NCBI GenBank assembly: GCA_016882195.1
Contig: VGLU01000002.1
Location: 107,884-171,883, forward strand
Source: Thermoproteota archaeon
GTDB taxonomy: Archaea > Thermoproteota > Methanomethylicia > Methanomethylicales > Methanomethylicaceae
DNA length: 64,000 bases
Direction of reading: 5' to 3'
In this document: positions 3,736 through 59,718 of the stretch, piece after piece
Layout: every line of letters starts with the position of its first letter
Position numbering within the stretch: position 1 is the stretch's first letter
Translations under genes and position numbers: made by a program
Notes under the pieces: model-generated
The model's database searches: none
Seen by the model: only the letters and a program-made list of their open reading frames with translations
What the model was told of the DNA's origin: nothing

Positions 3736-3736
3736 T

Positions 3737-12039: not shown

Positions 12040-12048
12040 AAATGCTCA

Positions 12049-13056: not shown

Positions 13057-13108
13057 TGCCCACCATCACCTCTTTCGCCATTTTATTTAAAATAAAAAAA
13101 TAAGGTTG

Positions 13109-33368: not shown

Positions 33369-33551
33369 CTATCCAATAAGAGATGGGAGGGGGGCGGTAT
33401 TAATAATGTTACGGTCTTGGCGTTATCGGCTATCTGAGGGCTGGAACGCCATCCATTAAATGAGCGCTCAAAACTCGATATCTGCGAGCGTTGCCCTTTT
33501 ATAAGTTAAAGATAACCTTTAATTAGGCAAGCATTAAATCTTAAACAAAAA

Positions 33552-34742
33552 TTGCAGAAAGGATCTAACTTGAGATACTTCACGAGCCCATACAACTTTC
33601 TCCAGCAGGAGTGTAGGAGGGTCAAGATCTATGATACTACGCTCAGAGACGGTGAGCAGACCCCAGGCGTAAAGTTCACCAAAGAGCAGAAGGTACAGAT
33701 CGCCAAGAAGCTTGACGAGCTGGGGGTGAACACCATTGAGGCAGGCTTCCCAGTGATCTCTCCCTTTGATGAGGAGGCCGTTAAGGCCGTTGCATCTGAA
33801 CGCCTCAGCGCCGACGTTATCTGCCTCTGTCGATCGAAGCAGAAGGACATAGACGCTGCGCTGAGGGCTGACGTTGATGGTGTTATAATATTCCTCGCGG
33901 TTTCTGATCTGCACCTAAAGTATAAACTCCACACGGATCTGATGAGCGCTGTAAATATGGCGGCAGAGTCCATCACGTACGCCAAGAGTCATGGGCTCTT
34001 CGTGCAGCTCTCGGCCGAGGACGCAACAAGGACCTCCATGGATTCTCTGACCGCCCTCTACAGCGCTGCCGAGGAGAGGGGGGCGGACAGGCTGGGCATA
34101 GCGGACACCACCGGCTGCATAAGGCCGAGAGGAATGTATTACTTGGTAGAGTCTCTAAGGAAGATCTTTGATCTGGAGCTCTCCGTACACTGCCACGATG
34201 ACTTCGGTCTAGCCGTGGCGAACTCCCTTGCAGCCTACGAGGCCGGCATCGATGCGATCTCGGTCTCGGTCAACGGTCTCGGGGAGAGGTGTGGGAATGC
34301 CTCTCTGGAGGAGGTGGTGATGTCCCTCTACGCTTTATACGGGGTGGATCTCAAGTTCAGAATCAAGGCGTTAAGGGAACTCTCCGAAATGGTGTCCCGA
34401 TTCTCCGGCGTCCCAATACCAATCAACAAGGCGGTAGTAGGAACAAACGCCTTTAGGCACGAGTCAGGCATACACGTTGCTGCCATAATGAAGAACCCGT
34501 TTACCTACGAATCCTATGAGCCACAGCTGGTTGGGCAGGAGAGGGCATTGGTGTTCGGCAGGCACTCTGGAACAGATGGTGTAAGGCTGAAGATCGAATC
34601 CCTCGGCTACAAGGTTACCGATGAGGAACTTGCCGAAATAATCAAGAGATTAAAAACATTGCCAATAGATGCCCCCATTATAGACAACAGTAGTCTCTGC
34701 AACTTCGTAAAGAAGGTGCTCTCTGAGAGGACTCAAAGGTGA
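33552..34742 (+). CDS. Short 2-oxoacid:acetyl-CoA condensing enzyme (homocitrate/citramalate/isopropylmalate synthase family, AksA/NifV-like, no regulatory domain)
   Basis: VKIYDTTLRDGEQTPGV and HCHDDFGLAVANSLAA DRE-TIM motifs. 396 aa, which is too short for LeuA. TTG start per the ORF track. Confidence 0.75.
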   Translation: MQKGSNLRYFTSPYNFLQQECRRVKIYDTTLRDGEQTPGVKFTKEQKVQIAKKLDELGVNTIEAGFPVISPFDEEAVKAVASERLSADVICLCRSKQKDIDAALRADVDGVIIFLAVSDLHLKYKLHTDLMSAVNMAAESITYAKSHGLFVQLSAEDATRTSMDSLTALYSAAEERGADRLGIADTTGCIRPRGMYYLVESLRKIFDLELSVHCHDDFGLAVANSLAAYEAGIDAISVSVNGLGERCGNASLEEVVMSLYALYGVDLKFRIKALRELSEMVSRFSGVPIPINKAVVGTNAFRHESGIHVAAIMKNPFTYESYEPQLVGQERALVFGRHSGTDGVRLKIESLGYKVTDEELAEIIKRLKTLPIDAPIIDNSSLCNFVKKVLSERTQR

Positions 34743-35569
34743 GCAACAACCTCTACTCCCTGGCAACATCTAATAGAGCAAAGGTGGCCATAGGGGTCGA
34801 CTCAAAACTGCCATCCGCAGAGATGGTCATTAACTCCGCCCTCTTTGCCAGGAGGGAGGGCTATGCAGAGCCCGTGCTGATTTCCGACGGAAAGATAAGC
34901 GACGTTCTCTCGCCCGGTGGGATCGTTGGTAATGAGATACCACTCATAATAGACAAAACTCCGGAGAGGACCTTCGTGGAACTCTTGAAGGAGGGTGCTG
35001 TGGACGTCGCCGTCAGGGGGAACCTCGGCTCCAGAATACTCATCCCGCTACTTCGCTCAGAGTTCAAATGTAAGAACCTATGCCGCGTGACGATTCTCGA
35101 TGTTGGTGGCAGGCTTGTAATGCTAGCCCCCGTGGGGATAGAGGAGGGAGACTCACTGGAGGACCTGCTGACAATAGCCAGGCACTGCATGTGGCTTGCT
35201 GTAAAATTAGGCATTCCGTATAAGATAGCGGTTCTCTCGGGCGGCAGGATCGAGGATAAGGGACGCAGCAAGAAGGTTGACAGAATGCTCTCCACGTCGG
35301 CTTTGCTGACGCGTACCCTTAGGAAAAAGGGAATGGACGCAGAGAACTTCGGCATTGAGCTGGAGAGGGGTGTGGATGGCGACGCCACTCTGCTCTTAGC
35401 CCCAGATGGCATCCTCGGGAACATTATCTTCAGATCCCTCGTTCTTGTGGCAAACGTGGAGAGCTTCGGTGCCTATGCTGCGGCACTTCCAAGGGTTTAT
35501 ATCGACACCTCAAGGGCAAAGGCCAGTTACTTATTACCGATAATCCTTGCCAGCGCGCTCAGTAAATAA
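34739..35569 (+). CDS. PTA/PTB (phosphate acyltransferase fold)-like protein, function unknown
   Basis: VAIGVDSKLPSAEMVINSALFARREGYAEPVLISDG resembles the N-terminus of phosphotransacetylase-family proteins. Confidence 0.4.
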   Translation: MSNNLYSLATSNRAKVAIGVDSKLPSAEMVINSALFARREGYAEPVLISDGKISDVLSPGGIVGNEIPLIIDKTPERTFVELLKEGAVDVAVRGNLGSRILIPLLRSEFKCKNLCRVTILDVGGRLVMLAPVGIEEGDSLEDLLTIARHCMWLAVKLGIPYKIAVLSGGRIEDKGRSKKVDRMLSTSALLTRTLRKKGMDAENFGIELERGVDGDATLLLAPDGILGNIIFRSLVLVANVESFGAYAAALPRVYIDTSRAKASYLLPIILASALSK

Positions 35570-35676
35570 CTGGCGATTGAGCGCTAGAACAGATTTCTGG
35601 CAATAACATTGAAAAGGGATCATGCTCTACGACAACTAAAAATATTCGCCCACCTTGTTAATAAGATGAGGTTCCA

Positions 35677-36915
35677 ATGTTGGGCAGCACTGCCGTAGAG
35701 AAGATCATCGCCAACGCTGTCGGTCGGAGGGTCCGCGTGGGGGAGTTCGTTGAGGTCCCCGTGGACTTCTCATACTTCCACGACGGAACGGGTCCGTTGA
35801 TCATCGACGCACTCAAGAGGATGGGCGTTGAGAAGATCAAGGATCCAGACAGGGTGGGTATAGTTTTTGACCACTCGGTGCCCCCCTACAGCGACCAGGC
35901 GGCAACGCTCCAGGCAAAGGTGAGGAAGTTCGCAAGGGATCAGGGCATACCAAAGTTCCACGACTTAGGGGAGGGGATCTGCCACCAAGTCGTACCAGAG
36001 ATGGGATACGTCTCACCGGGCATGGTAGTTATAGGGGCGGACTCGCACAGCTGCACGCTCGGATGCTTCGGTCTCTTCTCAACGGGGGTCGGAGCCACCG
36101 ACCTTGCCTACATATTGGCAACGGGAAGGATCTGGCTGAAGGTTCCCGAGACCCTTGGGATAGACTGCAAAGGAAGGCTGAGCGGGAAGGTCTCGTCCAA
36201 GGACCTCATACTTGAGATAGTGCGAATGGTGGGAACCGATGGCGCAACCTACAAGGCGCTCGAGTTCTCCGGAGCGGCAGTCAGACATATGTCCCAGTCC
36301 TCTAGGATGACCGTGTCCAACATGGCGGTGGAGATGGGGGCAAAGACGGGGTTCATAGAGGCCGACTTGAAGACCTTTGAGTTTCTGGGGAGGGAGGGGA
36401 AGACCTTCAGGACCGATACCAAAGTGGAGAGGATAAGGGTGGACGCGGGGTCCCTCGAACCAAAGGTCGCATGCCCCGGCAGTGTTGCGAACGTGAAACC
36501 CGTCTATGAGGTTGAGGGCACCCACATCGACCAAGCGTTCTTGGGCTCCTGCACCAACGGAAGGTACGAGGATCTGTTCGAGGCCGCAAAGATTGTAAGG
36601 GGAAGGAAGGTTCACAGGGATACGCGCTTCATAGTGATCCCGGCGTCCAAGTCCACCTACCTGAAGGCTCAGAAGGACGGTCTAATGGACATATTCTTGA
36701 AAGCCGGGGCCATAATAGGCGTCACGGGCTGCGGACCGTGCCTTGGGGTCCACATGGGTGTTCTTGGCGATAATGAGGTATGCATCTCAACGTCGAACAG
36801 GAACTTCATCGGAAGGATGGGTAGCGTCAAGTCCTCGGTCTACCTGGCATCGGCGCAGACCGTGGCTGCCTCCGCGGTTGAGGGCAGGATCACCGACCCA
36901 AGGAGGTTCTCTTAA
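35677..36915 (+). CDS. 3-isopropylmalate/homoaconitate dehydratase large subunit (LeuC/HacA-like)
   Basis: Aconitase-family motifs with Fe-S cysteines ([25 protein letters not shown]). Confidence 0.8.
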
Positions 36916-37400
36916 TGATAAAGGGAAGTGTATGGAAGTTCGGGGACGATGTGGATACCGACGTGATAATACCCGCGAAGTACCTGCGGTCGGTTGATCA
37001 GACGGTCTGGCCGAAGCACCTCCTCGAGGGGCTGGATCCGACATTCAGCTCCAAGGTTAAGACAGGGAACATAATCGTCGCTGGCAGGAACTTCGGCTGC
37101 GGATCCAGCAGGGAGCAGGCCGCGCTCGCCATAAAGTGGGCGGGGGTCTCCGCCGTCGTTGCAGAATCCTTCGCCAGGATATTCTTCCGGAATGCGATAA
37201 ACAACGGGCTGCCTTTGGTAGAGTGCAAGGGCATAAGCAAGGCCGTTGACGAGGGGGACGTCATAGAGATAGACCTCGACAGCGGCAATGTAAAAACAAA
37301 GAAGGGCATCCTAAGATCATCGCCGCTCCCTCCCTTCCTCAAGGAGATACTGAAGAGCGGCGGTCTGGTGGAGTATTACAAAGCAAAGAGGGCGGTGTGA
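36915..37400 (+). CDS. 3-isopropylmalate/homoaconitate dehydratase small subunit (LeuD/HacB-like)
   Basis: 161-aa aconitase swivel domain ([26 protein letters not shown]). Start overlaps the leuC-like stop. Confidence 0.8.
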
Positions 37401-39010
37401 CCACTTTGCCAAAATCCGCATCCTCGACCGGCGGCCCTCCGAACACATCCGAGGTCGTAGTGAAGGCCCTCGAGAGGTTCGGCATTGGGGTGGCCTTCGG
37501 TATGCCAGGGATGTGGTCCCTTCCGCTATATGATGCGCTCTCCACCTCAAAGATAAGGCACATCCTAGTCAGGCATGAGCAGTTTGCGGTCTATGCCGCA
37601 GATGGATACGCGAGGGTCTCTGGAAAACCTGGCTTTTGCATAGGCACCGCAGGTCCTGGCGCCGTAAACATAGCCGCCGGCATGGCCGTGCCTTACCGCG
37701 ACCACTCTCCAGTGATCGCCGTAACCGGGCAGGTCCCGACCTACGAGCAGGGCAAGGGCTGGATAGAAGATCTGGATCTGCAGGCAATATTCAAGCCGAT
37801 CACGAAGTTTACCGCCCAGGTTACAGATCCTGCGTCCGCCTACGATCTCTTGGCTACCGCCTTCCTTTCATCCGTGGAGGGATGTCCAGGCCCGTCACAC
37901 GTCAGCGTACCTGGAGACGTCCAAAAGTTACCCTCAAGGGCTAAGGATTACATCCCAGTTCCATCAAAGCCCGAGCCAGACCCTGCTACGATCGATCTTG
38001 TAATAGACGCGGTCTCCTCCTCAAGGGTTCCGCTGATCTTGGCGGGGTGGGGGGCGGTCCAGTCGGGCGCCTCTGAGGGCGTAATGAAGCTAGCAGAGGC
38101 CATACGCTCTCCCGTCGCAACCTCGTACATGGGGAGGGGAATAATCCCAGAGGATAGCCGGCTCGCCCTTGGTCCGGCTGGCAGGAGGGGAACCAAGGCT
38201 GCCAATGCCGCTCTGGCCTCCTGTGACCTGCTGATAGCCCTTGGCTGTAGGCTTACCAACCTCACGGTTGACACCGCAATAAACTGCAAGGTGATCCAGG
38301 TGGATGTCGATGATGGGAACTTCTCGGTCCTGGCCTCGATAAAGGTGAGAAGCGACGTCTCCCTCTTCATAGATGCTGTTCTGCCCCGCCTCAAATCAAT
38401 GAGGCGCGCTTCCACCCCTGTGGCTAGACCCGCTGGTGTGGCTAAGGAAGTGGAAGGCAAGGCGCCAGAATTCGCAAGGGCTCTGTCGTCCTTCTCCGAT
38501 GCCATATTCTCGGTGGACATAGGACAGCACACCATATGGCTGATGCAGGCGTTAAAGGTCAAGCGACCCAGGCACGTCCTCTTCTCCGGAAACCTCTCCG
38601 CCATGGGCTACTCCCTGCCCGCTGCCATAGGTGCCAAGGCGGCGTCCCCCAGGAGCAAGGTGATCGTTGTAACGGGCGATGGGGGCTTCCAGATGACCGC
38701 CCCGGAGCTCTCAACCATGAAGGAGAACGGAATAAACGTGGCGGTCTGCGTCTTCAACAACAGATCCCTAGGTCTGATAAGGCAGCTTCAGGAGAGGACG
38801 TACGGAAGATCGCACGGCGTGGACTACTCTGCGCCTCCAGACTACGTCAAGCTGGCGGAGGCCTACGGCGTCATGGGCATCAAGGCGGACTCTCCGTCCG
38901 ACGTGGTAGATGCTCTGCGGGTTGTGGACGAGCCCATTGTCGTGGAGATTCCCATCCCGAGGAAGGAGGGGGTCGAGATGTCAAGACCGAGGACCCTCGA
39001 CAAAGAATGA
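37397..39010 (+). CDS. Thiamine-diphosphate-dependent enzyme, acetolactate-synthase-large-subunit-like (three-domain)
   Basis: N-terminal Pyr domain, central domain and C-terminal [10 protein letters not shown]-binding motif; 537 aa. Confidence 0.75.
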
Positions 39011-39059
39011 TAATTAATATGAGAAGCCACAAAACTAAACAAGCGGGGGCCTTCCTTCC

Positions 39060-40025
39060 TTGACCGAATTCTATGACAGAGACGCCATCCGGCAGCTCCT
39101 CTCATCAAAGAAGTGGATCTCGCCGCATAAAAGGGTCGTCGTGGCGGTGGACGAGAAGGCTGGCGTGGCCGAGCTGATAGAGGACCACGCCAGGGGGATG
39201 TGTCTGGGCGGGTCTGCATGGTCGCTATACCACTACACCAAGAACAGCAGATCGGTGTTCTGGTCCAAGCGGGAGGGGTCGCGCCTCTTCTATAAGCTTA
39301 GGCTTTCAAAGGAGAGCACTGCGAGCAGGCTCGAGCCCAGCTATAAGCCCGCATCTATCGAGTCGGTAATCTCGGATGGGGAAAAGGTGAGGGTCACCTA
39401 CTCCGGGCTGGCGGGTGCGGGCGTGGCGGCGCTCAGCAGGGGCATGGCGGAGGGCGTGGAGGGGGTGGAGATCCTCGAATGGGGAGGCGGAAAGAAGCTT
39501 GGAAGGGCCACGATAATCCTCCCGAGGAAGGAGAAGATAATAATCGGCGTGGACGACACCGACAAGGCAGATGAGGGCGCCACATGGTCGCTCGTCAACG
39601 AGATAGCCTTCGAGATCTCGAGGCACAAGGGCGTGGACTACCTGGAGCACGCCATAGTCCAGCTCTACCCTCAGAACCCCTTCAAGACCCAGAACTGTGT
39701 CTCCATCTCCGTCTCCTTCGCTGTTCCGCCGGAGCTAAAGGATCCTATTGTGAAGGAGTTCAAGGAGGCGATGACCGATAGGACCTTCTCCAAGGAGACC
39801 GGAATGGCTTACCTGCCGGGCATAATGATCCAGGACGGCCTGATGTCCTTCGCGAGGAGGGCGAAGTCTGGTATGGTAACGGTGGAGGATGCCGAGAAGG
39901 CAGCCACGGAGAATAACGTGAAGGTCTACCGGATAACAGGAAGCAGGGGGGTCATAGGGGCCGTGGCTGCCATACCCTACGTAGAGTATCCCGACGAGGC
40001 CGTGCGGATCGCCGGTGATGATTAA
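39060..40025 (+). CDS. Hypothetical protein with TiaS-kinase-like (DUF1743-type) domain
   Basis: Central IIIGVDDTDKADEGATWSLVNEIA resembles the N-terminal IGIDDTDSxxGxCTTxLA kinase motif of tRNA(Ile2) agmatidine synthetase. It is preceded by a ~150-aa unrelated N-terminal domain. TTG start. Confidence 0.45.
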   Translation: MTEFYDRDAIRQLLSSKKWISPHKRVVVAVDEKAGVAELIEDHARGMCLGGSAWSLYHYTKNSRSVFWSKREGSRLFYKLRLSKESTASRLEPSYKPASIESVISDGEKVRVTYSGLAGAGVAALSRGMAEGVEGVEILEWGGGKKLGRATIILPRKEKIIIGVDDTDKADEGATWSLVNEIAFEISRHKGVDYLEHAIVQLYPQNPFKTQNCVSISVSFAVPPELKDPIVKEFKEAMTDRTFSKETGMAYLPGIMIQDGLMSFARRAKSGMVTVEDAEKAATENNVKVYRITGSRGVIGAVAAIPYVEYPDEAVRIAGDD

Positions 40026-41202
40026 TTTGTTCGACTTCATAGTCGTGGGCTCCGGCGCAGGAGGAGCCACCGTGGCAAAGGAGCTCTCCGCCGCGGGCAG
40101 GAGCGTCCTGCTTCTCGAGGGTGGGAAGGAGGTTCCCCAGGGGCGAGCCTCGAGCGCCTATACAGTTCTTCCCGCTGATGTCGAGGTCTGGCAGACCGTC
40201 TGCCTGGGCGGGACCACCACGGTGTCTATGGGAAACGCCGTCCGTGCCAAGATAGATGGCGCGCTTGAACGGTTCTACGCTGAGGCGGAAAAGGAGATGG
40301 CTGTGCGGCCGGTTCCTGAGTCCCACATGGGCTCTGCCACCAGGTCGTTGCTCCTCGCGTCCAAGGACTGGAAGGTCATGCCAAAGGCAATAGACTTCAG
40401 CAAGTGCAAACACTGCGGTCATTGTCCCCTCGGCTGTCCGTCCGCCGCAAAGTGGGACGCCACTGCCTACGTCAGGGAGGCGGTATCGCATGGCTGCTCC
40501 CTCTACACTGAAACGCCTGTAAAGAGGGTCATAACCCAAGGAGGGAGGGCCGTAGGCGTGGAGTCCTTCAATGGCAGAACCTTCAATGGCAGGGGTGTGA
40601 TCCTAGCGGCGGGGGCTGTGGAAACTCCTCGAATCCTCATGAGGTCGGGCTTCGAGTCTGTAGGTAAGGGGCTCTTTGTGGACACCTTCGTAACGGTCGG
40701 CGGGGTCAAGAAGGGGGCCCGTTTGAACGCTGAGCTGGGCATGGCTCTATACATGAAGAGGAGGGGATACATGCTCTCGCCCCACTACTCCAGCTTCCTT
40801 GTGCCTCAATTTGCTAAAAAGGGCATAAAGATTCAGCCTTCTGACCTGTTGGGAATAATGGTTAAGATCGAGGACGAGCCCACCGGCGAGGTGAGACCTG
40901 AAAAGATCATCAAGGGGCTCTCCCACAAGGATCTAGAGCTTGTGGAGAGGGGCAGGAGGGAGGCCTCAGAGATCCTCAACGGAGTGGGGGTTGATCCAGA
41001 GACCATAGTCTCGACCTATCCAAGGGGGGCGCATCCAGGAGGCACCTGCACCCCACTCGTAGACCGTTCCTTCGAGACAGATTTCGAGTCCCTTTACATA
41101 TCCGACGCGAGCATCATACCCAAACCGTTGGGCATGCCGCCGATGCTGTCCATAGTGGCCAGGTCCAAGAAACTCTCAAAGCTACTACTTGGAAGGGCCT
41201 AG
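40015..41202 (+). CDS. FAD-dependent oxidoreductase, short GMC-like
   Basis: FDFIVVGSGAGGATVA dinucleotide motif, Cys cluster CKHCGHCPLGC, C-terminal PRGAHPGGTC resembling the GMC C-terminus. Confidence 0.55.
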   Translation: MMINLFDFIVVGSGAGGATVAKELSAAGRSVLLLEGGKEVPQGRASSAYTVLPADVEVWQTVCLGGTTTVSMGNAVRAKIDGALERFYAEAEKEMAVRPVPESHMGSATRSLLLASKDWKVMPKAIDFSKCKHCGHCPLGCPSAAKWDATAYVREAVSHGCSLYTETPVKRVITQGGRAVGVESFNGRTFNGRGVILAAGAVETPRILMRSGFESVGKGLFVDTFVTVGGVKKGARLNAELGMALYMKRRGYMLSPHYSSFLVPQFAKKGIKIQPSDLLGIMVKIEDEPTGEVRPEKIIKGLSHKDLELVERGRREASEILNGVGVDPETIVSTYPRGAHPGGTCTPLVDRSFETDFESLYISDASIIPKPLGMPPMLSIVARSKKLSKLLLGRA

Positions 41203-45389: not shown

Positions 45390-46303
45390 CCGGCACCCCT
45401 CCTCAAAGCGGTCAAAGCCACCTTCAGGTTCATCAACCCCTCTCTTCCATCCACCAGCGGCCTCTTTTTCTTGCTCACACACTCGATAAAGTGCTCCAGC
45501 TCCACCTTGAGTGGCTCCTTCTTGTTCACGTCCACCGTACGCCTCGTCGCGCCGCTGCAGACCTCGATGCTCTGTTGTATGTAGTCTAGGCAGACCATGG
45601 CCTCCGAGCCCGTGGCCACGAGGGTCCTCACCTTGTACGGCGTGAATCGGCTGGCCTCTATACTGGCTATGGTCTCCCCGTAGTCTAGGAGTATGAGCGC
45701 GTAATCCTCCACATCCCGTCTGTACTTACCATAACCCGCATAGACGGCCTTCGGCTCCCTTCCGACCAGGAACCGCGTGACGTCGATATCATGGGTTGCC
45801 AGATCCACTATTATTCCAACATCCTTTATTCTGGGAGAGAACGGTCCGGAGCGCTTGGTGGACAGAATGAAGAGCCTGCCGAGCTCCCCCGCCTGTATCA
45901 TCTCCTTCAGCTTCAGGACCGCAGGGTTGAACCTCTCTATGTGCCCCACCATCAAGATCGCTCCACCCTTCTTGGCGGCCATGATTATTGCCTCGGCGTC
46001 CTTGATCGTAGGGGCGATCGGCTTCTCGACGAGGCAACTTATCCCCTCCCTCAGGAAGATGGGCGTAACCTCCTTATGCAGCGATGTAGGCACGGCGATG
46101 CTAACGGCGTCCGGTCTCTGTCTTACCATCTCATCGATGGAATCGATCACTACCGTTCCGTACGCGCTGGCCACCTCTCTTGCACGCGCGTCGTCTTTAT
46201 CAACAATGCCGATGAGTTTGCAGTTTTTAATCTCCGAGTATACCCTGGCATGGTGTTGGCCCATCATCCCCACGCCAACTATGCCAACCCGCAACGCCGC
46301 CAC
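45386..46303 (-). CDS. Gfo/Idh/MocA oxidoreductase (WbpB-like UDP-GlcNAcA 3-dehydrogenase)
   Basis: LRVGIVGVGMMGQHHARVY N-terminal Rossmann motif; 305 aa. Confidence 0.7.
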   Translation of the reverse strand: MAALRVGIVGVGMMGQHHARVYSEIKNCKLIGIVDKDDARAREVASAYGTVVIDSIDEMVRQRPDAVSIAVPTSLHKEVTPIFLREGISCLVEKPIAPTIKDAEAIIMAAKKGGAILMVGHIERFNPAVLKLKEMIQAGELGRLFILSTKRSGPFSPRIKDVGIIVDLATHDIDVTRFLVGREPKAVYAGYGKYRRDVEDYALILLDYGETIASIEASRFTPYKVRTLVATGSEAMVCLDYIQQSIEVCSGATRRTVDVNKKEPLKVELEHFIECVSKKKRPLVDGREGLMNLKVALTALRRGAG

Positions 46304-46362
46304 CGCTTAAAAGATGTCGGCGTATACCCTTAAATACATTCTTTAACTCTACCTTTTACAAT

Positions 46363-47382
46363 GTGTGCCAGCATGGAATGGTGCCGGCTATGAACCCTCT
46401 GGTCTTGCTTGTCTTCCCGATCTCATTCATCGTCACCTATTGGCTCACCTTAAATTGGATAAGGGTCGCCAAGAGGTCGAACATCCTAGGGAAGGACCTG
46501 AATAAGCCGGGCAATCCCCTCGTTCCTGAGATGGGCGGCATACCGGTGATAGGCGGCTTTCTAAGTGGCCTCCTCTACTATGTTGCGTTGAACACCTTCT
46601 TCTTAAACCAAGCAACCTACAACGTGTACGTGCTGGGCGCCATTGCCACGGCCCTGATAATATTCGTCATCGGCATGATCGATGACATGCTGGGGTGGAA
46701 GATCGGTCTCTCCAAGCTCCAAAAACCGCTTTTGACGATACCAGCGGCCATCCCCATGATGGTCATAAACGCCGGCCAGTCCACCATAGCCCTCCCCTTC
46801 ATTGGCACCGTGAGCTTGGGCGTCCTGTACCCCCTCCTGTTTGTGCCCGTGGGCACGGTCGGGGCGGCGAACGCCTTCAACTTGCTCGCTGGGTACAACG
46901 GTCTCGAGTGCGGTATGGGCATAATAATTATACTCGCCATATCCTTCGTGTGTTATATGACTGGAAGCACTTGGGTCGCAGTCATAGGTGGAATAATTGT
47001 TTCGGCGCTCATTGCCTTCCTCATATTCAACTGGTACCCGGCAAAAGTCTTCCCTGGCAACTCCTTCACATACATGGTCGGGTCGATGATTGCCGTGCTA
47101 GCAATACTTGGGAACGTTGAGAAACTGGCGCTCTTTCTATTCATACCCTATTACTTGGACTTTCTCCTACCATTGAGGAAAAGGATGAAGGTTGAGGCCT
47201 TTGCAAAAGTGAACCCGGATGGCAGTTTGGATATGCCATATGAGCCTGTATATGATGTTGCGCATCTGGCCATAAAGGTGCTAAAGCGTATAAAGACCAA
47301 AGTTTATGAAAGGGATGTGGTTGGCATCATATTGATCACCGAAGTGATTCTAACACTCCTCGGCATCCTGCTTTATGTTTAG
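46363..47382 (+). CDS. GT4 MraY/WecA-family polyprenyl/dolichyl-phosphate HexNAc-1-phosphate transferase (AglH-like)
   Basis: Polytopic protein with an MraY-like NAFNLLAGYNGLE motif. Confidence 0.75.
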   Translation: MCQHGMVPAMNPLVLLVFPISFIVTYWLTLNWIRVAKRSNILGKDLNKPGNPLVPEMGGIPVIGGFLSGLLYYVALNTFFLNQATYNVYVLGAIATALIIFVIGMIDDMLGWKIGLSKLQKPLLTIPAAIPMMVINAGQSTIALPFIGTVSLGVLYPLLFVPVGTVGAANAFNLLAGYNGLECGMGIIIILAISFVCYMTGSTWVAVIGGIIVSALIAFLIFNWYPAKVFPGNSFTYMVGSMIAVLAILGNVEKLALFLFIPYYLDFLLPLRKRMKVEAFAKVNPDGSLDMPYEPVYDVAHLAIKVLKRIKTKVYERDVVGIILITEVILTLLGILLYV

Positions 47383-47451
47383 AAGGCATTTCTAACTCAT
47401 TACACGCGAAAGGCCTTGCCCCTAAAGTTTGGTCATTAACCAGCGCTGGCT

Positions 47452-48192
47452 TCAGCGTTCCTTTTTTGCAACTATTATCATTTCATTTGGCTTCAGATCA
47501 AAGAGGTCGCTAACAAATCTTCTCGTGCGAAGATACGTTGCCTGTATCCAATGTCTTGGGGTTGCATATATCCAGGTCTTCTTTAATACAATGGTCTTGA
47601 AGCCGCTATCCGTGAGGAGTTTTTGCATCTTCCCTTCATTAAAGCTCTGAATGTGTTGCACTGGATGAAATACCGCATAACATTCGGGGCATAAAACCTT
47701 GTGAGCCTCCAGATCCTCTGCGTAGGGGGAGGTCATCAACAATAAGCCGCTTCGTTTGAGAACTCGGTTTATCTCTTTAAACCCATCCCTTACCTCATGA
47801 TCGAAGAGGTGTTCAAACAATTCCATGGTGAAGACCCTGTCAAACTTTTCGTCAGCATAAGGCATACGCGTCACATTTCCCACATCTGCCTCCACATTGA
47901 CCTTCTCCATGACTACTCTCTTTTTGAACTCGCTAACAGTTTTTGTTGACGCGTCAATACCATAACAATCGTGCCCCATCTTCGAGAGATCGATCAATAT
48001 CTTACCAGAGGCAAAGCCGACGTCTAGAATTGATAGTTTGCCTTCAAAATATGGCCGAAACACGTTCATTGGAATCTGAAAGTAGTTCTCTGAGAAGTGC
48101 GCTGTATGAAATATTGGAATAGAGGCCCAAACATTCCAAAACTTTTCTCGACGGTTTTCGTCCCATTTGAATTCATGACCTTCATCTACCAT
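47452..48192 (-). CDS. Class I SAM-dependent methyltransferase
   Basis: ILDVGFASGK motif I. Confidence 0.65.
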   Translation of the reverse strand: MVDEGHEFKWDENRREKFWNVWASIPIFHTAHFSENYFQIPMNVFRPYFEGKLSILDVGFASGKILIDLSKMGHDCYGIDASTKTVSEFKKRVVMEKVNVEADVGNVTRMPYADEKFDRVFTMELFEHLFDHEVRDGFKEINRVLKRSGLLLMTSPYAEDLEAHKVLCPECYAVFHPVQHIQSFNEGKMQKLLTDSGFKTIVLKKTWIYATPRHWIQATYLRTRRFVSDLFDLKPNEMIIVAKKER

Positions 48193-48307
48193 TTATTCGA
48201 CCACACGAGAATGGTACTATTAAATCGCATTTTAAATATATCGGTTTAAGAAATTACGGCAATTTTTGTAGTTTTCCCACGTCCGTAACGTGTATGCCAT
48301 CTTGAAA

Positions 48308-49462
48308 TCATGCTAGTCTGTCCAGCGCCTCTCTGAGTTTTATAAAGTTGCGGTCCCAATCTGCCCTCTCAAAAACGGTCGATCTCGCATTTCTACTCAA
48401 AGTCTGCCGCAGCTTACTATCCGAAAGGAGCGCGATCAGCGTCGCAGCAAGCTCTTTTTTATCCTTCACAGGAAACAAGATTCCGTTTTCTCCGTTGAGA
48501 ATCCATTCCCTGTTTCCAGGGATATCGCTTACAACCGGTGGCGTTCCAACAACCATTGCCTCCATCAGACTCGCAGAAGAGCCGTCGGTAAGCGATGTCG
48601 AGACGTAAACGTCAGACAACGCCACCATTTTTATTATCTCATCTCTGGATATCCAATTTAAGACAGAAAAGTTACTCGCAAGACCCCGCGTCTCGATCCT
48701 CTCCCTCAATTTAGAGTCCTGCATCCCCCCTCCGATCAGTATGAAACGAGCGTTGTGTATTTTCATTACAACATCTTTCGCGGCCTCTACAAGCGTCTCA
48801 ACGTCATAAATTGGCTCAAATCTCCTTGTGCAAATTATGATCGGATCAGACGCTCCCCATCCCATCTTGGTACGCAGGTCATCTCGTTCTCTCTGATTCT
48901 TCCTTTTCGCAGAGATTGCTACTACCTCTTTGGGATCGAACCAAGGGAATATTATGAGCTTCTTGGGATCACAACCAAGTCTTAAGGCAGCCCTTGCTTG
49001 AACCAAACTGTCTAACAAAACGAGCTTCGCCCTCTTTACGCTAAACATTACTAGTGCCTTATATAGCAGAAATTTTGGTCCAAGTAGAACATCAGAACCC
49101 CAGACAAATAGGACATAATTTTGCTTTGACCAGAGCGCAGAGTAAAAACCATATGTCAAGGCCCAGTTGCCGATAAGAAGGTCATGTTTTATATGCCTTA
49201 GGTACAGATCAAATATGAAAATCCTCGTTACGAAACCTAGCGCTCTGGTAAATACCTTTGAGTAAAATCCCTCTTTATTACTAAATTTAAAGGGCACATC
49301 TGGCATCGTTATGACTTTGGCCTCTGGGACTAGCTCTTTGACGTACTCTTCTGCTTTGGGATCAAAAGTAAGTAGAATGGTTTTATAGTCATGTGAGAGG
49401 TGCTTTAGGAAGAGCACATCATAGGGAGAAGTACCGTGGTTCGCGTAAATAAGGGTCTTCAA
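48308..49462 (-). CDS. Glycosyltransferase family 1 (GT-B)
   Basis: C-terminal GGM...ASNFSV...LTDGSSASLMEAMVVGTPPVVSD, the E-x7-E-type GT1 region. Confidence 0.7.
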   Translation of the reverse strand: MKTLIYANHGTSPYDVLFLKHLSHDYKTILLTFDPKAEEYVKELVPEAKVITMPDVPFKFSNKEGFYSKVFTRALGFVTRIFIFDLYLRHIKHDLLIGNWALTYGFYSALWSKQNYVLFVWGSDVLLGPKFLLYKALVMFSVKRAKLVLLDSLVQARAALRLGCDPKKLIIFPWFDPKEVVAISAKRKNQRERDDLRTKMGWGASDPIIICTRRFEPIYDVETLVEAAKDVVMKIHNARFILIGGGMQDSKLRERIETRGLASNFSVLNWISRDEIIKMVALSDVYVSTSLTDGSSASLMEAMVVGTPPVVSDIPGNREWILNGENGILFPVKDKKELAATLIALLSDSKLRQTLSRNARSTVFERADWDRNFIKLREALDRLA

Positions 49463-49747
49463 CTATTGACACCGTGAACGTTCTATTCTCTCTTTTATAT
49501 CTATGGTATAGTGCATTCTTTTTTAATCTTCGCTCATACTATACTGCAAGACCATTAAAGCACATATTCCCTTTGCAAGCACGCTTCATCATTAAGAGTC
49601 ATGAGCACTTCGGATCTTGCTTGTACAGAAAATGAAACAAAATCGCTTTCCCTTACTTCTTTATAACGAACACTAGCCTAGCATATTCTTCGAATGCACA
49701 ACGCTCGTTTCTTGGAGTGAGCTCCCCGCTCTCACTTGCAACCATGA

Positions 49748-50377
49748 TCAAAAAAGAATAGCGGTCGCCAAGGTGCTCGTAAATGCTGTTTGGGGACGTT
49801 GGCGTTTCATGCACAACAAAACACCAGATAGGCATCTCTCGACGCAAAAAATCCTATTTATAAAGTTCTTTACAACTCGAATAGCCCTCCTTGCCCCTGC
49901 ACTCTCAAGCACCCTCTTACGGTAACCTTCTGCTATTTTCTTATTGTTAAGATTCTCGATGTCAAATATGACCACTCCACCAGAACGGGCCACTCTTAGC
50001 ATCTCATCAATCACCACATTCAAATTAGGGAAGTACCAAGTCGAGTGAAAACAGTATACGCAATCGAAGCTGTTGTCTGTATAGTATAAATTTTCTGCAT
50101 CCCCAACCTCGCATTTGATATTTGGGTTTAACCGTCCACACTCTTCAATAAGATCAGAGGAGATGTCCACTCCATAAATTTCATACCCTGTCTTTTGAAG
50201 AAAATCCGCAATAGGATAACCCGTTCCTATTGCGACCTCTAGGAGCTTTGAGCCTGTCGGTACGTTTTTACAGATGTAATTACAGAGATTCCTGTCGTAC
50301 TGGATGAATCCCATCGCTTTTCTTTCTTTAATCCAGTACTTTGAATAAACATCCTTCATGAACGTTTTTCTGTCCAT
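49748..50377 (-). CDS. Class I SAM-dependent methyltransferase
   Basis: LLEVAIGTGYP motif I. Confidence 0.6.
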   Translation of the reverse strand: MDRKTFMKDVYSKYWIKERKAMGFIQYDRNLCNYICKNVPTGSKLLEVAIGTGYPIADFLQKTGYEIYGVDISSDLIEECGRLNPNIKCEVGDAENLYYTDNSFDCVYCFHSTWYFPNLNVVIDEMLRVARSGGVVIFDIENLNNKKIAEGYRKRVLESAGARRAIRVVKNFINRIFCVERCLSGVLLCMKRQRPQTAFTSTLATAILF

Positions 50378-50451
50378 AACTTCTCATAATTCTGCCCATT
50401 CATATAGTATTTATCCTTTGCACACGAAGAACTAGCCCTGAGCCTGTAAAA

Positions 50452-51342
50452 TTATTTTTTAGCCTTCACATAGGCCACGTATTTTCTTAAACCCTCCTTG
50501 AATGTGTGTTTTGCCTCCCAGCCGAGAAGCTCCTTGGCCTTGGCGGCGCTGACGATCATCCCTTTGAAGTCTCCGGGTCTAGGTGGCTTATGCTCTATGG
50601 GAATATCGCCGAACATCTCCTTGAGTCTCCCCACAATCTGAAACATCGTTACGAATTCCTTTCCGGAGAGGTTGAATATCTGATTTTTTCCGCCGGGTTT
50701 CATTGCTGCAACATTGCCCTCCACAAGATCCTCGACATAGACCCAGTTCCTTCCCTGACTGCCGTCACCCATTATTGTGATCGGTTCCTTCGACATCGCC
50801 TTTCTCGTAAATATGGCGATGGCCATGTTTGAGCGCATCCTTGGCCCGTATGGGATATCGTACCTCAATATGGTGTATGGGAGACCGTACTGAGAGTTCC
50901 ATGCCGTTAACAGATGTTCCTGCCCAATCTTCGTCTTGGTGTAGACGTGATCGGGGTGAGGTAGCGGCGTATTCTCATCAACCCTCTCCCTGAGCTTCCC
51001 ATAGACCCACGTCGATGATGCCAACAAAACCCTCTCGACCTCCTTAGCCATGCCCGCCCTTACGACATTCAGCGTGCCTACCTCGTTCACCTGTATGCAT
51101 AGTTGGGGATTGGCTATGGCCATGTTGACATCGGCGATGGCCGCGAGGTGGAATATCTGATTCACATCCGTGCAGGCCTCTACAACCTCGTCCTCATTGA
51201 GGAGGCTGCCATTGACCCATTGTACATCCTCGCGGTGCGGCTTCACCTTATCGAACACCCTTACATCGTATCCCTTCTTAATCAGCTTATCCACCAAATG
51301 GCTGCCGATGAAACCTGAACCGCCTGTGACTAAGACGACCAT
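50452..51342 (-). CDS. NAD-dependent nucleotide-sugar epimerase/dehydratase
   Basis: VLVTGGSGFIGSHLV; 296 aa. Confidence 0.75.
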   Translation of the reverse strand: MVVLVTGGSGFIGSHLVDKLIKKGYDVRVFDKVKPHREDVQWVNGSLLNEDEVVEACTDVNQIFHLAAIADVNMAIANPQLCIQVNEVGTLNVVRAGMAKEVERVLLASSTWVYGKLRERVDENTPLPHPDHVYTKTKIGQEHLLTAWNSQYGLPYTILRYDIPYGPRMRSNMAIAIFTRKAMSKEPITIMGDGSQGRNWVYVEDLVEGNVAAMKPGGKNQIFNLSGKEFVTMFQIVGRLKEMFGDIPIEHKPPRPGDFKGMIVSAAKAKELLGWEAKHTFKEGLRKYVAYVKAKK

Positions 51343-51353
51343 CTTTCTCCCTC

Positions 51354-52490
51354 CTAGGATAACTCTTCCTTTAACGTATTAATAACATACTCCGCGTCCT
51401 CTTTTGGCATATCTGCATATATTGGCAACTCCACCATCCGTGCACAGACATCTTCTGCGACTGGGAAGTCTCCCTCCTTCACTCCCAACAGTTTCCGATA
51501 TGCCGGTTGCATATGAAGAGGCGGCCAGTAGACCTCGCCGCCACATCTGACCCCCTTCTCACGCATCCTCTTCTTGAAACCATCACGGTCGATGCCCTTC
51601 CTCAACAGGATCGTGTATTTGTAGTAGTTGTGGACGAAGCCCTCGGGGACCTCTATCAACTCTACCCTCTCAAAATTCGAGAGTTCCCTGTCGTACAACC
51701 GTGCCACAATGTTGCGCTTCTCAATTATCTCGGGTAACCGCTTCAACTGAGAGAGGCCTATGGCGGCGCTTATCTCATTCAGTCGCCAGTTGTATCCCAG
51801 CTCCACGATTATATTGCTGTTGAAGGACTCCTTACCTTGGTCTCTCAACACTCTGGCCTTCTCAACAACCTCTTGGTCGTCAGTTGTTATTATGCCTCCC
51901 TCGGCGGTAGTCATGACCTTTGTTGGATAGAAACTGAAGCATCCCGCCGTGCCGAAGGAACCAGCGAACCTTCCAAAGGCCTTGCAACCTTGGGCGTGGG
52001 CCGCGTCCTCTACCAATGCGATTTTTTTATCCTCGCAGATCTCCTTTATCGCCCTGATATCAGGGCAGATGAGCCCGCCAATATGAACTACCATAACCGC
52101 CTTCGTTTTATTTGTTATGGCGCCCTTCACGTCCTCCTCTCCTATACAGAGCGAGCTGGCTTGAACATCGGTGAATACTGGCTTGCCGCCAGCAAAAACT
52201 ATGGAAGCAGCGGTGGCCGTGAAGGTGTTTGTAGGGACTATGACCTCCCAACCTCTCAGTCTTAAAGAACGGAGTACGATCTCCAAGGCACTGGTGCCTG
52301 AGTTTACTGCTACCCCGTATTTCATTCCATGATAGCTGGCATAATCCTCCTCAAATTTTTTGGTGTACTCCCCCATCGTGAGCATACCGCTACTAAGTAT
52401 CTTCTCCACGTCGATCTTAATGGACTCTATGTCCTCGGGCAAGAAGTAAAGCCTCAAAGGCGGAACATTCCTCAAAATGATCCCTCGCAA
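51354..52490 (-). CDS. DegT/DnrJ/EryC1/StrS family sugar aminotransferase
   Basis: SFYPTKVMTTAEGG Lys region; 378 aa. Confidence 0.8.
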   Translation of the reverse strand: MRGIILRNVPPLRLYFLPEDIESIKIDVEKILSSGMLTMGEYTKKFEEDYASYHGMKYGVAVNSGTSALEIVLRSLRLRGWEVIVPTNTFTATAASIVFAGGKPVFTDVQASSLCIGEEDVKGAITNKTKAVMVVHIGGLICPDIRAIKEICEDKKIALVEDAAHAQGCKAFGRFAGSFGTAGCFSFYPTKVMTTAEGGIITTDDQEVVEKARVLRDQGKESFNSNIIVELGYNWRLNEISAAIGLSQLKRLPEIIEKRNIVARLYDRELSNFERVELIEVPEGFVHNYYKYTILLRKGIDRDGFKKRMREKGVRCGGEVYWPPLHMQPAYRKLLGVKEGDFPVAEDVCARMVELPIYADMPKEDAEYVINTLKEELS

Positions 52491-52658
52491 TGGAATAGTG
52501 TAATTATTATAATATTAATTGTTTTGGGAGAACTCCAATCTATTTAAGCCTTTATAGTTACATGTCATTTCTTCTAGAACACATCACAAAAACAAGACGT
52601 AGCACCGCAATTGTAAAACGATCTGATGGCAACTACACATCAACTAGAACTCAATCGA

Positions 52659-53639
52659 TCACTGCCCTTCTTGTAGTCCTAGCTCCCGATTGACCTCATC
52701 CATCTTAAGTTCCTCAAGGTCTCTCAAATGTCTCAGCACTATGCCGATGGACTTTAGGAAGTATGTGGTTGCTCTTGCGTCCCTGCTCGAGAATGATTTA
52801 CCAAGGCAGAAAAGAAACTTCCCGAGTTGGGATCGGAGGAGAACGGTGAAACTTCCAAAGTCATGAGGCATATTCTTGAAGAATAAATAGAAACTGTAAA
52901 CGTTGCACATCTTTATGCGGGCATAATTGGTCATGCGCGCCTCCATCGAGGTCTTATGCACAAGCCTAGCAGTCGGGACGCAGAAGAGCCTGTCTGTAAA
53001 CCTCTTGTGAACGCGGTATGAAAAGTCAAGATCCTCCTTACAGGCCCATCTTAATAGCGCCTCATCAAAATGGAAATAATTGAACACCATGCGTCTGTAA
53101 CTCTGGTTACTTCCGGCGAGACGCTCGCACACAAACGGGTGGTCTTGATTGTATGGCAGAACCTCCTCTGTTGAGGAAAGCACCCTTACCCTACGATCAT
53201 ATCTGTAGTGAGTTAGAGCAAAAAACGCTCGAAAGGCATTATTTCGTCCTGTTATCGGGAGATCGTTGATGGTTGTTCCCTGTGCACCAACGGCCTTTGG
53301 GTGCGACTCGTAGAAACTACGGATCTCCGACAGATAGTTGGGCGCCAACTCAACATCATCATCTATGAAGAGTATGATATCTCCGGAGGTCTTACTACTC
53401 CCGATATTGCGGGCCACGGTCAAGCTCCGTGCTCGAGTATTTCGAAAATAAATAAACGTCGTCCCTTGTTTCTTGAACTCGTCCTGATAGGATCTGACGA
53501 GCTCCTCCGTCTCGTTCTCGCTGCTATCGTCTATCACCACCACTTCATGGGGAGCCTCAGACTGCCGTAAGAGCGATAACAAAGCGTCCTGAAGATCCTT
53601 CTCACGTTTATAGGTGGCTATTACGACAGAGATCTCCAT
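52659..53639 (-). CDS. Glycosyltransferase family 2
   Basis: ISVVIATYKR...VVIDDSS...LFIDDDV (DxD) GT-A motifs. Confidence 0.75.
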   Translation of the reverse strand: MEISVVIATYKREKDLQDALLSLLRQSEAPHEVVVIDDSSENETEELVRSYQDEFKKQGTTFIYFRNTRARSLTVARNIGSSKTSGDIILFIDDDVELAPNYLSEIRSFYESHPKAVGAQGTTINDLPITGRNNAFRAFFALTHYRYDRRVRVLSSTEEVLPYNQDHPFVCERLAGSNQSYRRMVFNYFHFDEALLRWACKEDLDFSYRVHKRFTDRLFCVPTARLVHKTSMEARMTNYARIKMCNVYSFYLFFKNMPHDFGSFTVLLRSQLGKFLFCLGKSFSSRDARATTYFLKSIGIVLRHLRDLEELKMDEVNRELGLQEGQ

Positions 53640-53739
53640 AACTTTTAGATCCGACTGTTACGGATAAAAAGCTGTCCCCCCCACAAAACTATTTAAAATT
53701 CGGGCAATACTATGGGCAACTTGGGGGTTAACAGAGACA

Positions 53740-55143: not shown

Positions 55144-55176
55144 AAAATGAAAGGCACGCAAAATAAAAATCTCAGG

Positions 55177-55251
55177 TGGGCCCGGAGGGATTCGAACCCT
55201 CGACCAACAGATTATGAGTCTGTCGCTATGGCCGGACTAAGCTACGGGCCC
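55177..55251 (-). tRNA. tRNA with CAT anticodon, probably tRNA-Ile2 (agmatidine-modified) rather than elongator Met
   Basis: Reverse complement has the cloverleaf with anticodon loop CTCATAA. Its acceptor and T-arm (GGGCCCG...GGTCGAGGGTTCGAATCCCTCCGGGCCCA) are nearly identical to tRNA-Ile(GAT) at 19643-19717. Confidence 0.7.
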
Positions 55252-55410
55252 TCGCATGAAAAAACACACTTCGTGAATTTATCCCTTTTGGGTCTGGCTC
55301 TGATTCAAAAAACACACGCCGCAGGCTATGTTTGGTCTTCTATACATTAAAAACATCCAAAACCTCATTACCCGAACCATTGAAGTGCGACGGGTCTCCT
55401 CCACCGCGTT

Positions 55411-56484: not shown

Positions 56485-56631
56485 GTTCTCACCTTTAGAA
56501 AGGTCAATCCCATAACGCTCAAATGCTTCCTTTGGTTCTCTCTTAAATTAACTTTAACCCTCTTCCTCTACCTTGTCTAACCCAAACCGCTTCTGGTCTG
56601 CCAATGCCTTAACTGCTCATTATTTCTGTCA

Positions 56632-59471
<2,840 letters not shown>

Positions 59472-59718
59472 CCTCTCTTTCTAATCCTTTCACCACAATA
59501 AATATTTTTTACTCTACGGCGTCTTTTGATAGTTTAATAATTTCTTCCTTATACCATAATTGATGTGCTTAAACCCTCTTAGTATGTTGTTTGTACCTCC
59601 TTCTGGGAGAAAACGCAGGCTATTTGCTGCTTACCATAATGGCATCTTTCATGAACAATGAAAACTTGTCTTAAATAATCCGTAAGTCCTTTTATTGCCG
59701 TAATACAGAGTAATTAAT

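Follow-up and report, generated by a model that had tools for sequence, protein, structure and literature searches.

The gene cluster

We analysed a 64-kb stretch of archaeal DNA (contig VGLU01000002.1, positions 107,884 to 171,883 of the forward strand; hereafter "the window"), in which seven co-directional genes make up a unit at 33552–41202 (+) that we read as a candidate locus for the biosynthesis of coenzyme B (CoB). These genes encode, in this order, a homocitrate synthase-like protein (AksA), methanogenesis marker protein 4 (Mmp4, or MtxX), the large and small subunits of a homoaconitase-family enzyme (HacA and HacB), a thiamine diphosphate (ThDP)-dependent enzyme, methanogenesis marker protein 11 (Mmp11) and a flavoprotein of the GMC type (Table 1). 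MtxX, the ThDP enzyme and Mmp11 have their homologs with 50–100% identity in Ca. Methanomethylicaceae and Methanosuratincola, which places the window in a methyl-reducing methanogen of the Methanomethylicia (Verstraetearchaeota).

An initial annotation of the window, made from the sequence alone, had described the first five open reading frames (ORFs), at 33552–39010 on the forward strand, as a tightly coupled operon. All five are found at these coordinates, and the overlaps it gave for their starts and stops (34739/34742, 36915 and 37397/37400) are read directly from the sequence: GTGA is common to the stop of aksA and the start of mtxX (34739–34742), TAATG to the stop of hacA and the start of hacB (36913–36917, 36915 being the A of ATG), and GTGA again to the stop of hacB and the start of the ThDP-enzyme gene (37397–37400). 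Its labels also agree with the domains detected, which are HMGL-like/HCS_D2, a weak PTA_PTB, Aconitase, Aconitase_C and TPP_N/M/C (Pfam). The extent of the unit, on the other hand, has to be revised: mmp11 follows the ThDP-enzyme gene after 49 nt and its stop overlaps the start of the GMC gene by 11 nt, so that the unit has seven genes and not five, and it is broken by a gap of 107 nt before hacA.

Table 1. Genes and intergenic regions of the cluster, in coordinates of the window
Feature	Coordinates	Strand	Basis
Intergenic region upstream of aksA; AT-rich TATA-like element TTTTATAAG (~33497-33505)	33369..33551	+	sequence reading
aksA-like synthase	33552..34742	+	HMGL-like + HCS_D2, no LeuA_dimer
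mtxX (methanogenesis marker protein 4), phosphotransacetylase (PTA) fold	34739..35569	+	PDB match MTH_231 MtxX
AT-rich gap of 107 nt between mtxX and hacA	35570..35676	+	sequence reading
hacA (aksD)-like large subunit, homoaconitase family	35677..36915	+	TIGR01343
hacB (aksE)-like small subunit	36915..37400	+	homoaconitase-type loop KYLRS
Divergent acetohydroxyacid synthase-like ThDP enzyme	37397..39010	+	TPP_N/M/C domains
mmp11 (methanogenesis marker protein 11)	39060..40025	+	TIGR03280 above cut-off
Short GMC-type FAD oxidoreductase with CxxCxxCxxxCP insertion	40015..41202	+	GMC_oxred_N

A likely chain-elongation module

The synthase has 396 amino acids (390 with the start chosen by other gene callers) and matches HMGL-like with 276 bits and HCS_D2 with 87 bits, with no match to LeuA_dimer; it looks like a short enzyme of the (R)-homocitrate type rather than LeuA, as the initial annotation had it. 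Its closest solved relative is the homocitrate synthase of S. acidocaldarius (6ktq). The score against TIGR02090 (LEU1_arch) is just short of the cut-off (478.0 bits for 484.75), a model which does not separate AksA from LeuA and CimA. The identity is 73–80% across Methanomethylicia and 57–59% in two further loci that carry the same gene set, L088 (a metagenome contig) and L089 (a Ca. Methanomethylicota archaeon).

HacA belongs to the hacA_fam of TIGR01343 (543.5 bits, cut-off 385.7). It scores just under the cut-off of the equivalog HacA_Meth (523 for 550), and 456 bits against LEU2, whose cut-off is 611. HacB falls below the equivalog cut-offs on both sides (199.9 for 230 with HacB_Meth, 189.5 for 245.85 with leud), but its substrate-recognition loop, KYLRS, is of the homoaconitase type: YLR(S/T) is found in 9/9 copies of the cluster, to be compared with YLRT in the homoaconitase MJ1271 (HACN) and YLVY in the isopropylmalate isomerase MJ1277 (IPMI) of M. 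jannaschii. This loop of the small subunit is reported to set the specificity (Jeyakanthan et al. 2010, as relayed in PMC7308503).

These proteins belong to the same three enzyme families as those of the CoB chain elongation of M. jannaschii, i.e. AksA (MJ0503), AksD/AksE (HacA/HacB, MJ1003/MJ1271) and AksF (MJ1596). They share with them a short synthase devoid of regulatory domain, the Arg loop of a homoaconitase-type small subunit and, in the L088 version of the cluster only, an AksF2-like dehydrogenase. Unlike those of M. jannaschii, the genes of the window lie together with translational coupling, the cluster of this lineage has no AksF, and the unit adds four genes with no assigned role in CoB synthesis: mtxX, the ThDP-enzyme gene, mmp11 and the gene of the GMC/Fe-S flavoprotein. 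The evidence supports the earlier proposal of a module that elongates 2-oxoacid chains and ends in a ThDP enzyme.

A ThDP enzyme distinct from acetolactate synthases

The ThDP enzyme comprises the three domains TPP_N, TPP_M and TPP_C and resembles IlvB, the catalytic subunit of acetolactate synthase (ALS, or acetohydroxyacid synthase, AHAS), with which it shares the three-domain fold, the catalytic Glu and the ThDP motif GDG...NN, at 36–38% identity. Its score against the ALS model TIGR00118 is 396 bits for a cut-off of 538, and all 20+ ALS equivalogs are far below their cut-off. Down to 53% identity, its relatives make up one block that comes entirely from Methanomethylicia, after which the identity drops abruptly to 38% with IlvB; in a neighbour-joining tree, the enzymes of the cluster stand apart from IlvB in 100/100 bootstraps.

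Alignments show that the whole clade, including the copies of L088 and L089, keeps the catalytic Glu and the GDG...NN motif. By contrast, the features that mark an AHAS are lost: RFDDR is replaced by RL(T/S)(N/D)(L/M) throughout the clade, the Trp of the QW motif (Trp574 in the plant numbering) by L, Q or I, DAFQE by GWIED or similar, and GMHG by G(R/I/L)RG; in addition, the sequence has two deletions and its C-terminal lid is truncated. The E. coli IlvH query detected no small subunit resembling IlvN, either in the window or in any locus of the cluster; its absence from the window had already been stated by the initial annotation. The same query did recover a genuine ilvB-ilvN pair in the positive control L056. 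This canonical pair (L056, 3–1018) is carried by an uncultured archaeon and lies 9 kb from mtxX.

As a control, we considered 80 IlvB-like metagenome loci, among the matches listed in a scan with the alignment of the cluster ThDP enzymes. Within this set, RFDDR/QWQ is kept in 76/80 loci and IlvN is present in 50/80, while mmp11, mtxX and the GMC gene occur in 0/79 independent loci, the exception (L093) being the same organism as L089. Nearly all the matches listed are canonical IlvB, and no new lineage with the cluster appears among them. Judged on its sequence, the enzyme does not belong to the acetolactate synthases.

These data bear directly on a first alternative, namely that the locus holds ordinary split genes for branched-chain amino acids (leuA or cimA, leuCD, ilvB) in which two marker genes were inserted by chance. 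The best NCBIfam matches of the synthase are a mixture of LEU1_arch and IPMS subfamilies, HacB is overall nearer to the IPMI MJ1277 (191 bits) than to the HACN MJ1271 (158 bits), and the nearest relatives of the ThDP enzyme outside its clade are IlvB at the 38% identity mentioned above. Besides, the genomes are small and a cultured relative requires yeast extract. Against this, the synthase lacks the regulatory domain of LeuA and CimA, the homoaconitase Arg loop is present in HacB of all cluster copies, and the ThDP enzyme has lost the AHAS motifs, the lid and the IlvN partner that the control loci largely keep; the dehydrogenase found within the cluster in L088 scores as AksF2 and not as leuB, and the set is co-inherited with two proteins nearly confined to archaea bearing methyl-coenzyme M reductase (MCR). 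We thus see an ordinary leu/ilv locus as unlikely, and we give this alternative very little weight; that the genes fit neither a standard leu nor a standard ilv operon had been noted from the start, and the Arg loop, the missing regulatory domain and the lost AHAS motifs agree with it.

MtxX, Mmp11 and the GMC-type flavoprotein

The initial annotation recognised a PTA fold in the second protein and saw no obvious role for it. The fold is right, but the identity was missed: the protein is MtxX, the methanogenesis marker 4. Its sole sequence match in the PDB is the MtxX of M. thermautotrophicus, MTH_231 (9nzy, E 1.7e-29), and the identity declines in a continuous series to homologs, at 50–57% identity, that NCBI names Mmp4/MtxX. 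It is a divergent member, with 173.9 bits against TIGR03270 (below the cut-off of 190) and a weak match to PTA_PTB (16.8, cut-off 24).

The structure of MtxX published in 2026 shows a PTA fold that retains the catalytic Ser and Arg of PTA (DTSR motif) and misses the catalytic Asp; it has extra conserved arginines, and neither the NAD(P) loop nor the metal-binding histidines (PMC12978539). In the protein of the window the DTSR motif is kept: D256, S258 and R259 are invariant, together with five more Arg, i.e. six invariant Arg in all. Compared with the phosphate acyltransferases Pta, Ptb and PlsX, MtxX has the same fold, the same dimer and the same catalytic Ser/Arg pair, but it lacks the catalytic Asp, is 30–100 residues shorter, and extra conserved Arg line its cleft. 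The authors of the structure deduced that the ligand should be hydrophobic and acidic at once, and gave the function as unknown (PMC12978539). Such a ligand fits a mercaptoheptanoyl carboxylate or phosphate.

One might also think that MtxX is the missing beta-decarboxylating dehydrogenase and replaces AksF here, the PTA fold being in the fold group of isocitrate and isopropylmalate dehydrogenases. Its gene is located between aksA and hacA where AksF is not found, and a weak fold similarity to PdxA, isocitrate dehydrogenase and isopropylmalate dehydrogenase has been described (PMC12978539). We nevertheless rejected this candidate as highly improbable: L088 and the Methanomassiliicoccales hold both MtxX and a canonical AksF of the Iso_dh family in or near the cluster, and the structure, devoid of NAD(P)-binding loop and of metal-binding histidines, conserves the Ser/Arg pair of a PTA (PMC12978539).

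Mmp11 matches TIGR03280 over residues 23–316 with 336.7 bits (cut-off 255.8). In its AlphaFold2 model (pLDDT 95), residues ~160–310 superpose on the kinase domain (TCKD) of TiaS, the tRNA(Ile2) agmatidine synthetase (3amu; rmsd 1.9 Å over 152 residues; Foldseek on the predicted model), and all of 41 homologs have the DDTD motif unchanged. The likeness is limited to this C-terminal half: against the TiaS model NF040849 the score is 50.7 bits for a cut-off of 600, with ~155 residues aligned in the TCKD only; the OB fold and the zinc ribbon of TiaS are missing from Mmp11, as is most of its FLD, and Mmp11 has its own N-terminal domain of 155 residues, for which Foldseek on the predicted model returned no PDB match. 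TiaS uses ATP to phosphorylate a carbonyl oxygen, readying it for the attack of an amine. By analogy, this type of chemistry also suits the formation of an amide from a carboxylate.

Two other genes are recurrent neighbours of mmp11 elsewhere. A radical SAM (rSAM) gene of the MSMEG_0568 family (~350 amino acids; TIGR04043, above the cut-off in L086 and L092) adjoins it in four unrelated loci, L083 (5944–6999), L086 (6940–7995), L090 (4398–5438) and L092 (9024–10097), and is absent from the window. Its product is distantly similar to LipS2, BioB and HmdB, enzymes of the sulfur-insertion type; it may work with Mmp11 as another partner, or else stand in for the pair formed by the ThDP enzyme and the GMC protein. 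The second is thiL, for thiamine-phosphate kinase, a few kb from mmp11 in Methanonatronarchaeum (L083, 4815–5765) and in Methanobacteriales (L084, 13350–14417; L085, 8625–9641; L173, 14669–15742). Genes resembling AIR synthase near mmp11 were considered as marker 2 and ruled out, for they score as ThiL.

The last protein of the unit has the N-terminal Rossmann fold for flavin adenine dinucleotide (FAD) of the GMC family (GMC_oxred_N 72.4 bits, cut-off 23). GMC_oxred_C is weak in the copy of the window (17.7 for 24.6), but is on record for the copies of L088 and L089. Three motifs are kept in 7/7 cluster copies: CxxCxxCxxxCP, of the 4Fe-4S type, HPGGT, which holds the catalytic His, and DAS(I/V)(I/L)P. 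This family is small: out of 1.84 billion, 134 representatives reach E<=1e-30, and the Cys motif is found in 84/150 best matches.

Conservation of the gene set

To analyse the synteny, one genome per GTDB species was scanned with the MtxX alignment, and the seven proteins of the window then served as tblastn queries. In Methanomethylicia, wherever a locus includes upstream sequence (L004–L010, L035), aksA is next to mtxX, and hacA-hacB-ThDP-mmp11(-GMC) then follow in L006–L011. The gap between mtxX and hacA holds 0.8–5.7 kb of unrelated genes in L006, L008, L009 and L035. In Methanosuratincola (L008, a complete genome, 10880–16458; also L035) these form a 5.7-kb block for nitrogen assimilation, set on the opposite strand exactly in this gap, with genes of the glutamate synthase-like and GATase/ACT types and those for P-II, an ammonium transporter and an RHH protein. 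This insertion indicates two transcription units, aksA-mtxX and hacA-hacB-ThDP-mmp11-GMC. The gap is a recurrent insertion point and probably an internal promoter. The region upstream of aksA, whose TATA-like element lies ~50 nt 5' of the first start, is on its sequence the likely promoter of aksA-mtxX; a scan of the window for sigma-70 promoters and terminators tells nothing about an archaeon.

Around more distant homologs of Mmp11, the set is found again in another order. L089 (and L093, the same organism) has mtxX-aksA-hacA-hacB-ThDP-mmp11-GMC, and L088 has aksA-hacA-hacB-aksF (Iso_dh)-ThDP-mmp11-GMC-mtxX; in both, mtxX corresponds to a 272-residue ORF with no Pfam match, identified by tblastn (E 1e-32 to 1e-44). 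The set is thus kept among proteins merely 34–70% identical, with mtxX in three different positions, which argues for a selection on the association and not for an inherited gene order.

Parts of the set are also associated in other archaea. An isolated mmp11-mtxX pair is found in Methanocella (L024, L065), L017 and L036; in L086 an rSAM gene precedes this pair, and in L092 both genes are neighbours. In Methanomassiliicoccales, mtxX lies 2 kb 5' of aksA-hacA-hacB-aksF, with queD, queC and queE between them. In Methanobacteriales, hacA-hacB-aksF2, a gene for a SufS-family cysteine desulfurase, ribH and mmp11 are co-directional within 6 kb (in full in L084 and L173, in part in L085), HacA scoring here above the cut-off of HacA_Meth (597 for 550).

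Additional genes were observed in these euryarchaeal loci. The cysteine desulfurase of the Methanobacteriales (L173, 6082–7278; L084, 3977–5176; L085, 656–1849) is a possible sulfur donor for the thiol of CoB. In Methanomassiliicoccales (L061, also L047), a gene of 543 codons whose product weakly resembles AMP-dependent ligases lies directly 5' of mtxX (L061, 8301–9932), and an alpha-acetolactate-decarboxylase-like gene comes after aksF (L061, 17257–18018).

The flanks of the cluster have suggested a different function. In the window it is indeed embedded in a glycosylation island, as first described, with RGP, NTP-transferase and epimerase genes on the 5' side and Alg13/Alg14-like genes, DegT and UDP-glucose dehydrogenase on the 3' side; the initial annotation hesitated between a CoB-type chain and an unusual acyl or amino-acid substituent on a sugar. 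A GT2 gene comes after the cluster in L089 and after mmp11 in Methanobacteriales, and uppS is beside mtxX or mmp11 in several orders, so that one could envisage a cell-surface glycan substituted with an aliphatic acyl group or an amino acid. However, the flanks vary with the lineage (ycaO-tfuA and a thiolase in L088, nitrogen genes inserted in Methanosuratincola), and MtxX and Mmp11 track MCR rather than any envelope type. The glycosylation genes look like a mere neighbourhood, and of the two options the evidence favours CoB; we find the glycan substituent hardly credible.

A proposed route to coenzyme B

CoB is 7-mercaptoheptanoylthreonine phosphate, the electron donor of every methyl- or alkyl-coenzyme M reductase (MCR or ACR). 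The chemistry beyond 2-oxosuberate was reportedly outlined decades ago in the work of R. H. White. Its late steps were nonetheless still described as unknown in 2025 (PMC12068725). The literature that we searched names no genes for them, never ties Mmp4 or Mmp11 to CoB and does not describe the cluster, though subscription journals were mostly outside the scope of this search and an earlier mention is possible.

With moderate confidence, we propose that the locus is a seven-gene operon for CoB biosynthesis in two units, the route leading from AksA, HacAB and AksF to the ThDP enzyme, the flavoprotein and finally Mmp11 and MtxX. AksA would condense acetyl-CoA successively with 2-oxoglutarate, 2-oxoadipate and 2-oxopimelate; HacA/HacB would isomerise the products and a dehydrogenase of the AksF type would decarboxylate them oxidatively, three rounds yielding 2-oxosuberate. 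These steps rest on the homology to the characterised enzymes of M. jannaschii. The later ones are suggested by position, chemistry and fold, and their individual assignments are much less certain than that of the cluster as a whole.

The ThDP enzyme could convert 2-oxosuberate to 7-oxoheptanoate by a non-oxidative decarboxylation. The GMC protein, with its FAD and putative 4Fe-4S centre, might then carry out a two-electron reduction turning the aldehyde and sulfide into 7-mercaptoheptanoate, for example through a thioaldehyde or hemithioacetal reduced by a hydride; this is the weakest step. The TiaS-type kinase domain of Mmp11 would use ATP to activate the oxygen of a carboxylate or hydroxyl, and MtxX would handle an acyl-phosphate or a phosphate transfer, so that both together might form the amide bond to L-threonine and the phosphate ester of the threonine. 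As a variant, the ThDP enzyme might behave like a pyruvate oxidase, its oxidative and phosphate-dependent decarboxylation giving an acyl-phosphate to be used by MtxX.

The logic would be that of the late steps of coenzyme M (CoM) synthesis, where ComDE and the thiol-forming MMP16/ComF achieve a ThDP-dependent decarboxylation of a 2-oxoacid to an aldehyde, followed by reductive thiolation. The protein families, on the other hand, are unrelated: ComDE has no middle domain, and MMP16 is a COG1900 metalloprotein and not a GMC flavoprotein.

Several observations weigh against a CoB operon. Besides the overall proximity of HacB to the isomerase, the synthase has a Leu in place of the His that binds 2-oxoglutarate (at the distal carboxylate) in homocitrate synthases of the lysine pathway; the same Leu is present in the Methanomassiliicoccales synthase located in an aks cluster with AksF, so that we discarded this His as a marker of 2-oxoglutarate specificity, since it does not discriminate. 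Tblastn with two AksF queries detected no Iso_dh-family gene in the window or in any Methanomethylicia flank, in line, for the window, with the initial annotation, which saw neither an isopropylmalate nor a homoisocitrate dehydrogenase there; the elongation module is thus incomplete in cis. AksF is presumably encoded elsewhere in this genome. Its absence is particular to the arrangement of this lineage, for the related cluster L088 includes it: an Iso_dh gene stands there between hacB and the ThDP-enzyme gene and is best described as AksF2_Meth (387 bits, compared with 239 for leuB). The ThDP clade, moreover, is seen solely in TACK-type (Methanomethylicia-like) clusters and is therefore not a step enzyme common to all methanogens. 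As for MtxX, its gene is a pseudogene in Methanosaeta concilii GP6 and is present in the non-methanogenic Ferroglobus (Borrel et al., PMC4153887). Lastly, ycaO-tfuA adjoins the cluster in L088 and mtxX in L092, and mmp11 is directly 5' of mcrBDGA in L091: marker genes gather in methanogenesis islands, so that their adjacency may mean co-regulation and not a shared pathway.

This last point is the core of the main rival explanation, the co-location of markers with the aks genes in a methanogenesis island. In that case aksA and hacAB serve CoB, whereas MtxX, Mmp11 and perhaps the ThDP enzyme and the GMC protein do another MCR-linked job (maturation or modification of MCR, or a cofactor such as CoM) and share with them their regulation only. 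The genes just mentioned beside the markers, joined by a NifB-like rSAM gene next to ycaO-tfuA in both L088 and L092, would agree with it, and so would the ThDP-dependent decarboxylation that CoM synthesis is generally known to include (sulfopyruvate decarboxylase). In other orders mtxX is reported beside mmp2 or uppS (PMC12978539). Yet the coupling is tight, with the overlaps between aksA and mtxX and between mmp11 and the GMC gene; the whole set is kept in three lineages while mtxX shifts position; the proximity of aks genes to mtxX and to mmp11 is seen independently in two euryarchaeal orders; and Mmp4 and Mmp11 are outside the MCR activation operon and complex, which consist of A2, McrC and Mmp3, 5, 6, 7, 15 and 17. 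We consider this explanation rather unlikely, and retain the CoB operon as the favoured reading.

Other features observed

Elsewhere in the window, two genes on the reverse strand (1966–3930 and 5054–7015) encode a 654-residue fusion of a NuoC-like domain (Complex1_30kDa) with Fer4_20 and Pyr_redox_2 (GltD/NfnB-like) and, close to it, a subunit resembling those of Mrp/Nuo antiporters. An ORF of 1612 codons at 14331–19169 (+) has weak matches to MA/M61-like peptidases and a bacterial Ig domain, and is probably a large surface protein. The G+C content falls from 0.57–0.59 at 36–46 kb to 0.43–0.49 at 46–60 kb, and the glycosylation region within 46000–60000 may thus be of foreign origin. In L091, where mmp11 directly precedes mcrB-mcrD-mcrG (8001–13375), the McrA region is called as three short ORFs of 98, 156 and 263 amino acids, possibly because of a frameshift, a recoding or an assembly problem.

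Implications

What is new here is a proposed gene cluster for CoB that draws in four uncharacterised enzymes and provides concrete candidates for the late steps. Two of the four, Mmp4 and Mmp11, are widely conserved methanogenesis markers, and both would gain a function if the proposal is true. They would be the parts common to methanogens, while the ThDP enzyme and the flavoprotein would represent a solution confined to certain lineages. In a broader and more tentative form, to which we lean less than to the operon itself, Mmp11 and MtxX might perform the CoB synthase steps across archaea bearing MCR or ACR, i.e. the joining of 7-mercaptoheptanoate to threonine at the expense of ATP, via an acyl-phosphate, and the formation of the phosphate ester; the ThDP and GMC proteins might constitute an unrecognised route from 2-oxosuberate to 7-mercaptoheptanoate in Methanomethylicia and relatives, the whole making, with AksF, a portable and complete CoB pathway. 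As the cluster is present in the cultured Methanosuratincola petrocarbonis, the question of the late steps is directly testable. If true, the proposal would open the production of CoB in heterologous hosts, which is needed for the engineered activation of methane and alkanes, and would offer new targets for inhibitors in methane mitigation.

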